Below, piece by piece: positions 15,391-47,170 of a stretch of DNA of 64,000 nucleotides; position 1 is the stretch's first letter; every line of letters begins with the position of its first letter. The stretch comes from Promethearchaeota archaeon. Its GTDB lineage: Archaea > Asgardarchaeota > Lokiarchaeia > Sigyniarchaeales > SOKP01. A program made the translations under genes and the position numbers. The stretch spans positions 1 through 64,000 of the forward strand of contig JAHPZJ010000023.1 in assembly GCA_019058245.1 (NCBI GenBank), written 5' to 3'. The notes below the pieces were generated by a model. That model did not search any database and was not told the DNA's origin. It was given only the letters and a program-made list of their open reading frames with translations.

Positions 15391-16785
15391 ATGAGTATGA
15401 CTCAGATCGTTGTCATAGGAATGGGCTATAAGTTCTGAGACTTCCTCAGTATTGGTTAAGTTGGTATTCCCATGGCAGCATTACTTGCTGATGTTGATGA
15501 TTTTAATGTCACCGGAATTCAGCGAAGATCACAAAGATCAGGGTGGAAAATCGATTGGCTCAATCAAGGAAAGAATCCTTTTGAAGGAGATGAACCAGGT
15601 TTAGATGAGTTAATTTCAAGAGTTGTTAAAAATGGGAAATTTAAAGTAACTGATAAGTATAATCTTGTAAATAAAGCAGATTATATTTTAATCGATGTGC
15701 AAACCCCTGTTGATGAAAATAAAATACCTAGGTATGAATCATTAATTGAAGTTTCTCGTAAAATCTCAAAACACTTAAAAAAAGGAGTAACAATCATTAT
15801 TGAATCCACAGTAGCTCCAGGTACTACTAATAATATAGTACAAACAATGTTAGAAGAAGGTAGTGGACTTAAAAGAGGTCAAGATTTTTATCTCGTATTT
15901 TCTTTTGAACGAGTTATGCCAGGAAAATTATTGGAATATATCACTGATTTTCCTAGAGTTATTGGAGGTGGTTGTAAGGAGGCAAATGAACGAGCAAAAT
16001 TCTTATATGGAAAGGTTGTTAAGAAAGAGCTTCAAGTTACAGATACTCTTACTGCAGAACTTACCAAATGTATTGAAAATTCATATAGAGATGTTAATAT
16101 AGCATTTGCTAATGAAATGGCTTTACTATGTGAAGATTTCGACAGAAATATATACGACATTGTTGAGTTTATAAATCACAGACATGATAGGATGATGCAT
16201 TATCCCGGTAGTGGAGTAGGAGGCCATTGTCTCACAAAGGATCCCTGGTTATTATTATACGGTTATGATAAATATACAGAAAAGAAAAACAAAGAGAAAA
16301 TAAAGCTTATACCAAACTCTAGAAATTTAAATGACTATATGCCCAATCATATGGTTGAATTGATGGAGGATATATTTAGAGAAGCTCATAAATTAGTAGA
16401 TAATATAAAAATTGTTCTTTTGGGAGTTTCTTATAAAGCAGATACTGATGATACACGAAATACTCCTACAGAAAATATTGTGAAAGTATTACAAGGACGA
16501 TATCACTCTCATAATATTATCTATATTGCTCATGACCCATATGTTAATGAGAGGGATTATAGGCTTACAGAACTTACGGATGACTTTAATGAAGCTGTTG
16601 ATAATGCTGATGTTCTTATCTTTGCAACAAATCATAGTGAATATTACAATATTGATTTAGATGATTTAAAAAAAAGAGTGAGGACACCTATTATCATTGA
16701 TGGTAGAAATATCTTTAACAAAAAATTACTACTAGAAAAAGGTTTTATTTATCGAAAAGTTGGAGAAGGTCCTGGAGTACTATAA
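15391..16785 (+). CDS. UDP-sugar (ManNAc/GlcNAc/glucose) dehydrogenase, split by a 30-nt intron (exons 15391-15429 and 15460-16785; 454 aa)
   Basis: Spliced N-terminus IVVIGMGY-VGIP restores the Rossmann GxGxxG; ESTVAPGT, GVGGHCLTKD, YKADTDDTRN. Confidence 0.9.
15430..15459 (+). other. bulge-helix-bulge/BHL mRNA intron (30 nt)
   Basis: Central helix GGCT/GGTT, bulges ATA 15428-30 and AAG 15458-60, inner hairpin CTGAG-ACTTC-CTCAG; contains in-frame TGA and TAA. Confidence 0.82.
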
Positions 16786-16817
16786 AAAAATTTAAAAAAA
16801 AATTTTGTTCTTATCTC

Positions 16818-16836
16818 TGAGTTCTTGCAGAACTCA
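16818..16836. terminator. perfect hairpin between convergent genes (terminator or 3'-UTR recoding element)
   Basis: TGAGTTCT-TGC-AGAACTCA. Confidence 0.4.
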
Positions 16837-16860
16837 AAATTAAATCCTAACATTTTTGAC

Positions 16861-17016
16861 TTAATTCTTTGAGATTTCTTTATCACTTTCGATTTTTTCA
16901 TTGCGTAGTTTTTGTAGTTTTTGAATTCTTTTATACCACATCTTAATCATATCTCAACTTGTACTGTAACACTCATCATCAAATCCAATATCTAAATAGT
17001 CAATTTCATCTTTCAT
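16861..17016 (-). CDS. small protein with in-frame UGA (candidate selenoprotein B, 51 aa)
   Basis: MKDEIDYLDIGFDDECYSTS(U)DMIKMWYKRIQKLQKLRNEK...; TGA at 16956-16954; GAAGG upstream of ATG. Confidence 0.5.
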
Positions 17017-17227
17017 GATTTTTTAACCTTCTACTTTCTGATTTTTATGGATTAAACTAAAAATAAAAGAGTAGTGATTATAAATAATTAAAATTCAATT
17101 ATATAAACTAATTTTCTATAAAACTTTTAAGACTTTTATTTATTCTCAATAAAAAATAATAAGTCATAATGTTACGTTCTCGAATTTTTTGCGGAATTCA
17201 TAGGTTTAGATTCTAAAATTTAACAAT

Positions 17228-17401
17228 CTATTCCTTGAGAGCTTTTGATTTAATTTTTAATTGTTTTCTTAATCGATATCGTTTTTTTAGATTAACTATC
17301 CCATTTATAACACCATCAATAATACCTCAACCAGTACAAGAGATTTTACTGTAATTCGAATCATTAGTGTCATTTTCCAATTTATGTTTCCATTCTGACA
17401 T
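17228..17401 (-). CDS. small protein with CxxU motif (candidate selenoprotein A, 57 aa)
   Basis: MSEWKHKLENDTNDSNYSKISCTG(U)GIIDGVINGIVNLKKRYRLRK...; TGA at 17329-17327. Confidence 0.55.
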
Positions 17402-17552
17402 AGTTTGGATACTTTATAGTTTTTTTAGATAGAAAAACAAGTAAGGAAATAAATAGATTATTATTATAATTTTAAACTTAGTTTTCAATAGATTTTTAAG
17501 AGCCTAACCTAACTGTTATTTAATTCACATTTTTTTATAAGAGCTGATATGA

Positions 17553-18233
17553 TTGCTATTCGATTATTGGGATGTAATAAAAGGATTTTTTAATTGGGTT
17601 GCTGAATCCGCAGCAATAATGATGATTTTAAGTGGTATAATGGCTATTACATGGTTGGGGTATGAACGAAAACGTAGAGGATCGTTTTTAAAAAGAAAAG
17701 CTGAAGTAGAGAAATTTGATATTACAAAGTTTCTTAGAGGATTATCATATATTGGATTGATTCTTGGGATATTTGTTGTATGGTCAGGTGCAGTTAGTCT
17801 CATCTTAAATATACCTCCTAGTTTTCAATATAGAGATGTGACTAAAAATGCAGCAAATCATTTTACTAGTATTTTCTTGATTGTTATTGGAATCACTATG
17901 TTTTTTAAGCCTATTAGTGATCTTCCACTTTCAAGTATACTAGGATTATTAGCAGGTACAGTTACAATATTTATTATCGCTTTACTTGTTCCTGATGGAG
18001 TAGTACAATTAATTGGTGGTTTTATAAATCCAAAATGGATACTTGTAATAATATTTATAATTGTGACAGTTATCGTAGGACTCATGGCTAAATTTTCTAT
18101 AGGAACATTGCAGAAAGTCTCCAAATTCTTATCTTGGCCTCCAATTGCTTTAATAATTATGATATTTTGCTTTATTCAAGGTTTTGCATTATGGATTTGG
18201 GGTGTGAGTATCTTTGGGCTTAATATTTTATAA
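17553..18233 (+). CDS. hypothetical multi-pass membrane protein
   Basis: about 6 hydrophobic segments. Confidence 0.7.
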   Translation: MLFDYWDVIKGFFNWVAESAAIMMILSGIMAITWLGYERKRRGSFLKRKAEVEKFDITKFLRGLSYIGLILGIFVVWSGAVSLILNIPPSFQYRDVTKNAANHFTSIFLIVIGITMFFKPISDLPLSSILGLLAGTVTIFIIALLVPDGVVQLIGGFINPKWILVIIFIIVTVIVGLMAKFSIGTLQKVSKFLSWPPIALIIMIFCFIQGFALWIWGVSIFGLNIL

Positions 18234-18352
18234 ATTAATTTTATCCTTCTTCTTTTTTATTTAATTTTAAAAAACCTAGTTTTAATAAATATCTACTAAT
18301 TTTAATAAATATTAGAGATTTATTTAGATTAAGGACTATAATTGTTGAAAAA

Positions 18353-18631
18353 ATGGCAGGATTTAAAGAATTAAAAGAAGAAATTTCTGAGATGCGAAAG
18401 AGTATGGAAAAATTAACAGCAGAATTGCAAGAGACAAACTTAGCTATAAGAGAATCTTTAAAGATGACATCTCAAGCAATTAAAGAGGCAAGTGAAATAT
18501 TTTCAAAATCTCTTGAGGATGCTATGATGAAAATGTCTGATTTAACAATTCAGATGAATGTAAGAGATACTATTTTAAAGAATCTTGGAATTGATGGAAT
18601 GATTCCAGACTTTTTAAAGAAAAAGAAATAA
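18353..18631 (+). CDS. small coiled-coil protein
   Basis: heptad pattern, 92 aa. Confidence 0.65.
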   Translation: MAGFKELKEEISEMRKSMEKLTAELQETNLAIRESLKMTSQAIKEASEIFSKSLEDAMMKMSDLTIQMNVRDTILKNLGIDGMIPDFLKKKK

Positions 18632-45667: not shown

Positions 45668-47170
45668 ATGACATCAACAAAAGTTAGTCTTCAAAGCGGT
45701 AAGATTAGTCCAGATTTAGAAACGATTAGTACCGCGAAAAAGATATTAGAACAAGAAAAGGTAAAATTTGTCCTATGTGCATTTACTGACGTTCGAGGAA
45801 TATTTCAGAGTTTTACTACTCCTGTACACCATTTTTTGAAAGGAGATCAATATTTTGAAACTGGAATTGGGTTCGATGGTTCTAGCATAAGAGGCTTTAG
45901 AGAGCTTCATACAAGTGATATGATTTTTTATCCAGATCCTCAAGCACTATATGTCCTCCCATGGACAGAAGGAATTCAAAAAACAGCGGTTATAATAGGT
46001 AGTATAAGAGAGCCTTTTGGGAGTATAGAAGCGGCAGATTGTGATCCTCGAGGTTATGTTGGTCAGCGAGCAGTAGATAAAGCTGCTAGTATGGGATATA
46101 CCCCATATTTTGGACCTGAAATTGAGTTTTTTGTGTTTAAATCGATTGATCCAAGTACCTTACACTATGATCTTTTTGTTAGTCCTAAAGGCGGTGCTGG
46201 CGACAGTTGGGGACCCCCTCGGGTTGATCCAGTATCACCAGAAACGGATATTGGAGGGTACATCTTACGACCTAAGGAAGCATATTTTAGAAATCCCCCA
46301 GAAGATACAACTTATGCTTATCGTAATGATCTCACATATGCTCTTGAAACAATGGGATATACCGTTGAGATGCATCACCATGAAGTTTCAACAAAAGGTC
46401 AAGTTGAACTTAATTACCGATATAGCGATTTAATTGATACAGCGGACAAAGTCCAAATATACAAACTCGCAGCAAGAAACATTGCTGCTAAATACGGATG
46501 GATCGCAACATTTATGCCGAAACCTATTTATTTAGATAACGCAAGTGGAATGCATGTCCATAATTCAATATTTAAGGACGGTGAGAACGCTTTTTGGGAT
46601 CCTGATGATGATTATGCGGAAATAAGTCAAATATGTCGGTATTATATTGGAGGTCTTTTAGAACATGCTGAAGCTCTAACAGCAATCTGTTGTCCAACTG
46701 TTAATTCATATAAGCGATTAGTACCTGGTTTTGAAGCACCAATAAACATTATGTATAGTAGAAGAAATAGATCGGCATTAATCCGTATACCAATGTATCT
46801 AAAAGGTGAAAAATATAAAAATCGTCGAAGACTAGAATATCGAGGGGTGGATCCTTCAACAAACTCTTATTTTGCATTTGCTGCTATTCTTACTGCAGGA
46901 TTGGATGGAATAAAGAAGAAAATCGATCCTGGTGATCCAGTAGATAGAGATGTTTATGAAATGTCAGAATCAGAGAAAAAAGCCGCAGGGGTAAAACAAT
47001 TACCAACTACTTTAAAAGATGCGCTAGATGTATTAGAGAGTGATTCAATATCTAAAGAAATTTTAGGTTCACATCTCTATGATGCTTTTGTAGAATACAA
47101 AACAAATGAATGGAATCAGTACTGTCTTTATGTAACTCCATGGGAGATTATGAAGTATCTAGATTACTAA
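45668..47170 (+). CDS. glnA: glutamine synthetase type I (with GSI-beta-like insertion)
   Basis: FDGSSI, GPEIEFF, HHHEV, FMPKP, SGMHVH, SYKRLVPGFEAP. Confidence 0.96.
   Translation: MTSTKVSLQSGKISPDLETISTAKKILEQEKVKFVLCAFTDVRGIFQSFTTPVHHFLKGDQYFETGIGFDGSSIRGFRELHTSDMIFYPDPQALYVLPWTEGIQKTAVIIGSIREPFGSIEAADCDPRGYVGQRAVDKAASMGYTPYFGPEIEFFVFKSIDPSTLHYDLFVSPKGGAGDSWGPPRVDPVSPETDIGGYILRPKEAYFRNPPEDTTYAYRNDLTYALETMGYTVEMHHHEVSTKGQVELNYRYSDLIDTADKVQIYKLAARNIAAKYGWIATFMPKPIYLDNASGMHVHNSIFKDGENAFWDPDDDYAEISQICRYYIGGLLEHAEALTAICCPTVNSYKRLVPGFEAPINIMYSRRNRSALIRIPMYLKGEKYKNRRRLEYRGVDPSTNSYFAFAAILTAGLDGIKKKIDPGDPVDRDVYEMSESEKKAAGVKQLPTTLKDALDVLESDSISKEILGSHLYDAFVEYKTNEWNQYCLYVTPWEIMKYLDY

Follow-up and report, generated by a model that had tools for sequence, protein, structure and literature searches.

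A tandem pair of candidate micro-selenoprotein genes with a conserved three-way-junction RNA element in Loki-type Asgard archaea

Two small tandem genes with a conserved in-frame TGA

The DNA analyzed here (the window) is a stretch of 64,000 nucleotides (nt), positions 1 to 64,000 of contig JAHPZJ010000023.1, from the genome assembly of a Promethearchaeota archaeon (GCA_019058245.1). A first-pass annotation, made from the sequence alone, had singled out a small minus-strand open reading frame (ORF) containing CTG-TGA as a candidate selenoprotein gene with a CxxU motif, U being selenocysteine (Sec). The frame, here termed ORF1, was found as described: it comprises 57 codons at 17231–17401 (-), reads MSEWKHKLENDTNDSNYSKISCTG-TGA-GIIDGVINGIVNLKKRYRLRKQLKIKSKALKE with codon 25 as its one in-frame TGA (preceded by C-T-G), stays open for 32 codons beyond the TGA, and ends with a TAG stop at 17228–17230 (-). 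Its sole Cys is codon 22 (17336–17338, -), three residues before the TGA, and the DNA, which had been called very AT-rich, has a measured G+C content of 28%. A second ORF of the same build, ORF2 (MKDEIDYLDIGFDDECYSTS-TGA-DMIKMWYKRIQKLQKLRNEKIESDKEISKN), lies on the same strand 211 nt downstream, with Cys16 encoded at 16969–16971 (-). Both sit within a 767-bp gap separating two plus-strand genes. The two genes and their TGA codons are as follows.

17228–17401, minus strand: ORF1 gene with its TAG stop (MSEWK..CTG-U-GIIDG..basic tail..NLKE), in 33/33 aligned genus orthologs
17327–17329, minus strand: TGA of ORF1, codon 25, the proposed Sec codon; TGA in 33/33 genus loci and 14/14 other-genus loci
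16861–17016, minus strand: ORF2, 51 codons and a TAA stop (M.D.EDYLDLEFDDDCYSTS-U-GMLNMWYRRAQKLRKL.., with C-x4-TGA)
16954–16956, minus strand: TGA of ORF2, codon 21, the proposed Sec codon; the column holds TGA or TGT only, never TGG

The two genes are probably paralogs, as hhalign of the predicted ORF1 and ORF2 sequences gave an E-value of 7.6e-5 with the Sec columns aligned, and the sequence coding N-L-K-E in ORF1 is still present within the 3' untranslated region (UTR) of ORF2. The frequency with which frames of this kind arise by chance was estimated from ATG-initiated frames interrupted by one read-through TGA, with no fewer than 20 codons ahead of it and no fewer than 30 behind it. The window holds 14 frames of this size, and a CxxU motif is present in ORF1 only. 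Given a Cys codon frequency of ~0.025, about 0.35 CxxU read-through frames are expected per window by chance, so the ORF1 frame taken alone is not significant. It is significant because the TGA is conserved in all 33 aligned orthologs from the genus and in all 14 from other genera. A plus-strand ORF overlapping ORF1 (17235–17354) was discarded, as its openness is not retained in orthologs.

Searching 36 genomes of the same genus with ORF1 by tblastn resulted in a single-TGA match in almost all of them, with identities from 82% down to ~36%, and the entire intergenic region is recognizable among these genomes at the DNA level. In the fetched loci, ORF1 and ORF2 occur in tandem in 33 species. 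The homolog search that had been suggested as a check on the candidate thus came out in its favor: the ORF1 TGA is kept throughout the genus and in the 14 loci of three sister genera, TGG or any other sense codon never occupies the site in the aligned orthologs, and conservation continues past the TGA as GIIDG.I..I followed by a basic tail. Invariant positions in ORF1 are M1, S2, W4, K5, G24, the TGA, and D29, and its insertions and deletions amount to three to four whole codons; in the four most divergent orthologs, the Cys is located at -8 and not at -3. In ORF2, the invariant positions are D9, C16, Y17, the TGA column (as TGA or its Cys replacement), W27, and R30, and the start ATG is conserved with a Shine-Dalgarno-like GGT ahead of it. 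Weak tblastn matches at four further loci (L052–L055), where a TGA lies in a longer frame, proved to be unrelated and to match the basic tail alone.

The substitution pattern is that of protein-coding sequence on both sides of the TGA. Codon-position differences follow the order 3>1>2 in both genes before and after the TGA, and indels are in-frame. In the codon-level analysis, the ratio of nonsynonymous to synonymous polymorphism (pN/pS) was 0.42 before and 0.54 after the TGA in ORF1, and 0.24 and 0.49, respectively, in ORF2. The sense frame of ORF1 contains exactly one stop in 33/33 orthologs, where the other five frames average 1.6–7.2, and the sense frame of ORF2 contains at most one in 31/31; the other frames of both genes together average 1.5–7.3.

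A profile search of 161 genomes of the class identified ORF2 in 64 genomes, every one of them in the window's own family (45/53 genomes of the window's genus and 18/53 in three sister genera), and none in the six other families of the class. In all 14 other-genus loci, ORF1 is encoded directly upstream of ORF2. Four of the ORF2 matches in this search lacked the stop and are therefore Cys forms. At the aligned TGA column, 27/30 ORF2 sequences carry TGA and three (those of genomes G022, G030, and G033) carry TGT, which encodes Cys; G097 likewise has no stop at this column and constitutes the fourth case. Three public protein records (P0010, P0013, and P0021) also have Cys at this position. The expectation that homologs might carry Cys at the TGA site is thus borne out for the paralog ORF2 but not for ORF1, for which neither the 47 loci nor 15 public records include a Cys form. 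Together, these comparisons demonstrate two genes with a conserved TGA and an exchange between Sec and Cys codons in ORF2.

One genome, G006, contains a second locus (C1:188500–192900, L057) with two extra TGA-containing ORF2 copies.

A three-way-junction RNA behind the gene pair

Alignment of the spacers and of the DNA following ORF2 revealed a conserved RNA of 65–67 nt that is located 3' of each gene and folds as a three-way junction. A covariance model, R1, was built from one element type followed by realignment, and it found 90 copies of the element in 49 loci. The two copies in the window, both of which resemble a selenocysteine insertion sequence (SECIS), are as follows.

17176–17242, minus strand: SECIS-like element 3' of ORF1 (R1 37.5 bits, E 1.9e-4; three-way junction as minimum-free-energy (MFE) structure)
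16812–16876, minus strand: SECIS-like element 3' of ORF2 (R1 83.1 bits, E 5e-15; three-way junction as MFE structure)

In the general fold, helix I is AAUCUC/GAGAUU, helix II has 9–11 bp and carries a loop of 11–12 nt in which AAA is invariant and (U)AG comes last, and helix III has 5–7 bp with a (C)GCAA(A) loop. The AAA and AG of the helix II loop are invariant in 60 aligned copies from the window's genus. The element starts 0–20 nt from the stop codon, and its distance from the UGA is 78–85 nt. In the ORF1 element, the 5' arm of helix I lies in the last codons (L-K-E) and the TAG stop falls inside helix II; the loop at the apex reads GUUAAAUUUUAG, with GAAUU-CCGCAAAA-AAUUC forming helix III. 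The ORF2 element has AAUCUC/GAGAU as helix I, GAGUUC-UGCAA-GAACUC as helix III, and a helix II of 10 bp in the MFE fold (an extra A-U pair is possible) with the 11-nt loop AAAAAUGUUAG.

The three-way junction is the minimum-energy structure of the individual copy in 68/74 cases. The ORF2 element folds with -18.0 kcal/mol (z -4.55, 0/200 shuffles) and the ORF1 element with -11.5 kcal/mol (z -2.33). When covariation was counted on the model-fitted alignment, which is biased toward the structure, 92.5% of cells were paired as compared to at most 61% in slid-partner controls, 19/23 pairs showed compensatory change (11/11 in helix II and 6/6 in helix III), and 0/500 shuffles reached any of five measures. 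Helix I is almost invariant and departs from its consensus mostly via wobble pairs. RNAalifold on a plain MAFFT alignment had earlier recovered helix II, with compensatory change in 7/9 pairs. A joint MAFFT alignment of both element types was rejected, as helices I and III were misregistered and helix II alone was predicted.

The element appears to be specific to this gene pair. A search of positions 16000–18500 of the window against Rfam with E-values up to 10 identified no SECIS and no other credible family. Over the whole genome from which the window derives, nhmmer and R1 identified two elements only; the next R1 match (C27:9260–9324, E 0.1) was dismissed because it lies inside a coding region. 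Five near-complete relatives contained no element away from the gene-pair locus. A looser scan for hairpins with an AAA..TAG loop gave 680 matches in this AT-rich genome and was of no use without the extra helices.

Element number also follows gene arrangement. Each gene has an element of its own in the window's genus and in one sister genus, where the spacer contains a T-run, a TATA-like box, and a Shine-Dalgarno-like motif. In two other genera, the genes form one operon, either overlapping by 13 nt or lying 17–19 nt apart, and they share one element located behind ORF2. Following the replacement of the ORF2 TGA by a Cys codon in G030, G033, and G097, the post-ORF2 element has decayed, and the element behind ORF1, which still has its TGA, is kept. 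The structure of the RNA and its link to the TGA are established. In G006, the second locus carries three extra elements (190010–190076, 190380–190445, and 191415–191480), so the unit of ORF and element can be duplicated within one genome. The putative expression signals of the two genes in the window are as follows.

17446–17468, minus strand: conserved A/T block and TATA-like box, the inferred ORF1 promoter (consensus ATAAnAAnAAtaTATTTATTtcc in orthologs), ~50 nt upstream of the ATG
17148–17160, minus strand: T-rich run 3' of the ORF1 element, a possible archaeal terminator; 'ttttatt' conserved in the spacer alignment
17074–17090, minus strand: TATA-like box in the spacer, the inferred ORF2 promoter (consensus TtTTATttTTTATAA.CaccA, 31 spacers)
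17026–17030, minus strand: AAGGT resembling a Shine-Dalgarno sequence, 9 nt ahead of the ATG of ORF2; at that distance the alignment shows a conserved ggt / GGTGAT / GGAGGT column

The published SECIS of Lokiarchaeota (lokiSECIS), as described in two reports (PMC4989117, PMC11227280), consists of AUGA, a 9-bp stem, an 11-nt loop that begins with five adenines and ends with G (mostly AG), and GA. According to the same reports, it is located just after the gene, the adjacent HdrA and VhuD genes share one, and the AUGA/GA core is invariant in published Asgard and eukaryotic SECIS. The element has been categorized as a eukaryote-like SECIS (Mariotti et al. 2016, PMC4989117) and as type I eSECIS-like (Huang et al. 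2024, PMC11227280). A strict pattern scan of the window's genome showed that canonical elements of the form AUGA-9bp-AAAAAnnnnAG-9bp-GA are present elsewhere in it, behind UGA-containing VhuD-like and Prx-like genes. In most of them, a closing helix is present and the GA is followed by a small GCAA-type hairpin, and 6/9 fold alone as a full three-way junction. At the locus itself, the strict scan identified no canonical SECIS, and a relaxed AUGA/GA scan of 33 orthologous loci found nothing conserved.

The element of the gene pair shares much with these canonical elements. It lies close behind the stop of a UGA-containing gene, its main helix has ~9–11 bp, and its 11–12-nt loop has adenines first and (U)AG last; the ORF2 loop AAAAAUGUUAG compares with AAAAAUGCUAG, AAAAAUCUUAG, and similar loops of canonical elements in the same genome. 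Both kinds of element in this genome form part of a three-way junction that also has a closing helix and, downstream, a GCAA-type hairpin, and one element can serve two adjacent genes, as for HdrA/VhuD. However, the element lacks AUGA before the helix and GA after it, having AA(A)G and U(AU) as flanks instead. The columns that replace the core (10/43 and 11/42) covary as A-U, G-C, and G-U, such that helix II simply continues; because these positions are Watson-Crick paired and covarying, a kink-turn cannot form there. The element further differs in the near-invariant sequence of its helix I (AAUCUC/GAGAUU), in that its 5' part lies inside the coding sequence in the case of ORF1, and in its restriction to the ORF1/ORF2 gene pair. 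Owing to the missing AUGA/GA core, we do not count it as a member of the lokiSECIS class despite its position, loop, scaffold, and sharing. Eukaryotic SECIS (RF00031 and relatives) resemble the element in being 3' of the UGA and in having an A-rich apical loop and a helix of similar length, but no Rfam SECIS model matches it (E up to 10) and it has no SBP2-binding G.A/A.G quartet.

Several canonical sites were recorded in the window's genome, at C13:146168(-), C27:41928(+), C27:42395(+), C28:244030(-), C17:91139(+), and C30:36811(-). The canonical AUGA/GA SECIS in this genome is not a simple hairpin, as each of these sites lies within a three-way junction that has a closing helix and a small GCAA-type hairpin inserted after the GA. 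The consulted passages of PMC4989117 and PMC11227280 contain no mention of such an embedding. Within the window, 46380–46414 (+) is a loose lokiSECIS match (ATGA-9bp-AAAAGGTCAA-9bp-AA, one mismatch) that lies inside a 500-residue ORF (45668–47170) and is probably due to chance.

The UGA codons and the predicted products

ORF1 and ORF2 are very probably real, tiny selenoprotein genes conserved in one family of Loki-type Asgard archaea. We consider it likely that they are paralogous micro-selenoprotein genes with a derived, kink-turn-less SECIS and that their products are redox peptides. The single in-frame UGA of each gene would be decoded as Sec, yielding products of 57 and 51 residues, and the recoding signal would most likely be the 65–67-nt RNA that extends from the last codons into the 3' UTR. 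This RNA is read as a SECIS derived for the gene pair because the scaffold and loops of the canonical element are kept and the core is replaced by Watson-Crick pairs. That the family as a whole makes two micro-selenoproteins of 45–57 residues, with a SECIS that has lost the kink-turn and kept the A-rich loop and junction scaffold, is a statement toward which we lean with some reserve.

AlphaFold2, run with the ORF1 alignment, predicts helices at residues 3–14 and 25–56 and a loop with C22-T-G between them, with the Sec as first residue of the long helix (mean pLDDT, the per-residue confidence score of the model, 71; 83–89 over residues 31–50). By sequence alone, ORF2 has a similar layout, with an acidic N-terminus, C-x4-U, and an amphipathic basic stretch. 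The peptides would accordingly be helix-loop-helix molecules in which a loop joins an acidic helix at the N-terminus to a long helix, basic and amphipathic, that starts at the Sec; the loop would contain Cys-x2-Sec in ORF1 and Cys-x4-Sec in ORF2. Redox-active CxxC/CxxU motifs are arranged in this way, with a Cys 2–4 residues ahead of a Sec at the start of a helix. Because the Cys-Sec spacing at the helix N-terminus resembles these motifs, a selenylsulfide redox couple is proposed, and by this analogy cycling between selenol/thiol and selenylsulfide would be the most likely chemistry. The basic helix is a likely docking surface, and it may hold the peptides on a partner such as DNA or RNA, a membrane surface, or one another.

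The proteins belong to no described family, as judged from their predicted sequences. Searches of Pfam and NCBIfam with ORF1, ORF2, and their orthologs returned noise only at E-values up to 10, in agreement with the first-pass annotation, which had recognized no known family. The ORF1 Cys-x-x-Sec at the N-terminus of an alpha-helix is reminiscent of Rdx / SelW-like proteins and of thioredoxin-fold CxxC/CxxU proteins, but peptides of 45–57 residues are too short for that fold, no beta-strands are predicted, neither database gave a match, and ORF2 has Cys-x4-Sec. GrdA, the 'selenoprotein A' of glycine reductase, is a small bacterial CxxU selenoprotein of ~150 residues. ORF1 resembles it in being a small selenoprotein candidate with CxxU, but ORF1 and ORF2 have no Pfam match and no glycine reductase genes adjoin them; the name 'selenoprotein A' given to the candidate earlier therefore matches neither GrdA nor any other family and is a label only. 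A further comparison is with the 'selenobiotic' SbtA, a Sec-containing precursor peptide with a radical-SAM maturase. ORF1 and ORF2 would likewise encode short Sec peptides in tandem copies, but they have no NCBIfam match and no adjoining maturase gene, and they are conserved over their whole length and not in a core only. To our knowledge, the proteins would be among the smallest selenoproteins.

The genome of the window, which is 76% complete, was examined for the Sec machinery. It encodes SepSecS (370.7 bits to PF05889, 426 bits to TIGR03531) and, 5 kb away, a SelB-like GTPase (C14:77365–78255; 235.7 bits against a bacterial cut-off of 242), as well as a weak PSTK-like match, and it contains known selenoprotein genes (VhuD-like and Prx-like) with canonical lokiSECIS. 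Neither SelD nor tRNA-Sec was detected in this incomplete assembly; its two best tRNA-Sec matches read as tRNA-Gly(UCC) and tRNA-Ser(GCU). Among five relatives from the genus, SelD is present in 5/5 with an in-frame TGA, often twice, and tRNA-Sec scores above the Rfam cut-off in 2/5. Of the components named in the suggested check for Sec machinery, SepSecS and a SelB-like factor were thus found in the genome itself and tRNA-Sec in relatives only, as was SelD. ARAGORN reported about 20 tRNA genes in the 3.09-Mb genome, even with intron search, together with one implausible 'tRNA-SeC' with a 2.9-kb intron; either the tRNA set is largely unassembled or the genes are interrupted in such a way that ARAGORN misses them.

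A number of observations weigh against decoding as Sec with a derived SECIS. Neither SelD nor tRNA-Sec was detected in the 76%-complete assembly, and a Cys-form ORF1 ortholog occurs neither among the 47 loci nor among the 15 public records. Past the TGA, pN/pS is just moderately low (~0.5). RNA structure constrains a portion of the ORF1 tail, the N-L-K-E codons being subject to helix I as much as to the protein. The element lacks the AUGA/GA core, the window's ORF1 element is among the weakest copies (37.5 bits, two A.A mismatches), and the covariation counts carry the bias of a fitted alignment. The decayed elements of G030, G033, and G097 count as one evolutionary event because these genomes are close kin, and the independent Cys-form ORF2 of G022 (L043) retains its element. 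Sec insertion at either UGA is deduced from comparative sequence, the assignment of the element as a previously undescribed SECIS-like form from its association with UGA genes, and the redox function from the position of the motif in a model of medium confidence.

Alternatively, the genes could be real and the UGA read as Sec without the three-way-junction RNA being a SECIS. The RNA, although of common ancestry with SECIS, would then serve in stability, processing, termination, or protein binding, and Sec insertion would be directed otherwise. Such an arrangement would be consistent with the missing core and its replacement by columns that covary as Watson-Crick pairs, with the T-runs downstream of the elements, and with the Cys-form ORF2 (L043) that keeps its element. 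We regard it as unlikely, since the locus contains no other conserved structure and no canonical SECIS, genuine SECIS in this genome have an identical apical loop and GCAA hairpin, the element occurs with the ORF1/ORF2 UGA genes alone and its number tracks that of the transcripts, and it was lost after the Sec-to-Cys change in one clade.

If the UGA were instead read through as Trp, Cys, or another standard residue, by near-cognate decoding or through TGA=Trp, the products would not be selenoproteins. Public protein collections contain 21 ORF2 and 15 ORF1 peptides, unnamed or 'hypothetical' and without Pfam domains, and these appear at first to favor such a reading: all 15 ORF1 records have W at the TGA position, as do the ORF2 records, barring the three Cys forms and a fragment that begins past the site (P0022). 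The lack of detected tRNA-Sec and SelD in the genome points in the same direction. Nearly all of the records (P0002–P0037), however, derive from contigs of ~0.5–2 kb, and gene calls with genetic code 4 (translation table 4) are a known gene-caller artefact on short AT-rich contigs; the W in the public records is read as such an artefact. On annotated contigs with a Cys-form ORF2 (L100–L102), a 46-residue hypothetical protein was called and the adjacent ORF1 was left uncalled. A genome-wide reassignment of TGA was rejected, as TGA is an ordinary stop in the window's genome, terminating 222/1580 long frames with the next stop at a median of 6 codons. Neither site has a TGG ortholog, TGT being the sole alternative, a Cys lies 2–4 residues upstream at both sites, a SECIS-like element stands behind each gene, and SepSecS, a SelB-like factor, and known selenoprotein genes are present. 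Read-through with a standard residue is thus improbable.

A UGA acting as a true stop, which would leave micropeptides of 24 and 20 residues and a downstream region conserved as RNA only, is more improbable still. The last ORF1 codons do overlap helices I and II of the RNA, and the basic tail ends early, and at differing places, in several orthologs. The 20–30 codons between the UGA and the element, however, show the 3>1>2 pattern, conservative replacements (I/V and K/R), and indels that are all in-frame, the frame is open for at least 20 codons past the UGA in every ortholog, and four species have a Cys codon in place of the UGA and an intact frame downstream of it. The idea that the frame is open by chance in AT-rich intergenic DNA, or that it is a conserved non-coding RNA without a product, can draw on the single CxxU read-through frame per window being within expectation (~0.35), but it is contradicted by the comparative data (conservation over four genera, protein-like substitutions, a conserved ATG and Shine-Dalgarno-like motif, and one sense-frame stop as compared to 1.5–7 in other frames) and has next to no probability. 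None of the findings that the first-pass annotation had named as refuting a CxxU selenoprotein was made for ORF1, and the candidate is supported.

Asgard selenoproteomes and the surroundings of the locus

Asgard archaea serve as the reference for how the eukaryotic selenocysteine system arose, and their SECIS have been called eukaryote-like precisely for the AUGA/GA core (PMC4989117, PMC11227280). A conserved element that has the loop and scaffold without this core, and is tied to UGA codons covarying with it, would amount to a natural dissection of the SECIS parts that matter where SBP2 is lacking. If decoding as Sec with a derived SECIS is correct, these archaea can insert Sec without the kink-turn, and the factor that reads the SECIS would recognize the loop and junction, which bears on the origin of the SBP2- and kink-turn-dependent eukaryotic system. 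In the literature searched, neither the ORF1/ORF2 peptides nor a core-less Asgard SECIS is described.

It would also follow that Asgard selenoproteomes, catalogued by homology to known families only, have been undercounted. Surveys of these selenoproteomes have covered only homologs of known families, with seven families listed in PMC11227280, and a 2026 review (PMC13188914) adds no further Asgard selenoprotein family. ORF1 and ORF2 are invisible to standard annotation, being either skipped or translated with UGA as Trp. This locus and the other UGA frames of the same genome suggest that a search starting from SECIS or from conservation would enlarge the Asgard selenoprotein catalogue. The genome contains at least five further UGA frames that have no known family and are accompanied by canonical lokiSECIS.

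Two of these frames are paralogs of ~154–164 residues on contig C10, at ~58.2–58.8 kb (-) and 60.1–60.6 kb (-) (L103:391–882 and L103:2207–2668). Each contains two adjacent TGA codons (..HADUUADVMK.. and ..DSGCUUEKVKK..) and is followed by a canonical lokiSECIS; they have no Pfam match and fall outside the seven families listed for Asgard archaea. On contig C13, at ~146.2–146.45 kb (-) (L104:285–542), an 86-residue frame with an in-frame TGA (..NNTGGUGCAV..) and one predicted membrane helix belongs to no Pfam family and has a perfect lokiSECIS 22 nt downstream. Contig C27 carries tandem frames for small membrane proteins of 83 and 71 residues at 41.63–41.88 and 42.12–42.33 kb (+) (L105:330–578 and L105:819–1031), each with one in-frame TGA located past the first hydrophobic segment (..VVSUGEIV.. 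and ..LMAUGTQV..), Pfam matches that are sub-threshold only, and a canonical lokiSECIS of its own.

The genes flanking the ORF1/ORF2 gap in the window encode a UDP-glucose/GDP-mannose dehydrogenase (15472–16785, +) and a polytopic membrane protein of 226 residues without a Pfam family (17553–18233, +). Synteny with the sugar dehydrogenase and the membrane protein was considered as a functional clue and found uninformative, as it is expected between close kin and holds in most genus species only. The membrane-protein gene, which is divergent from ORF1, is a neighbor in most but not all species of the genus; it is gone in seven species, where a 92-residue coiled-coil-like gene (window 18353–18631) adjoins the locus.

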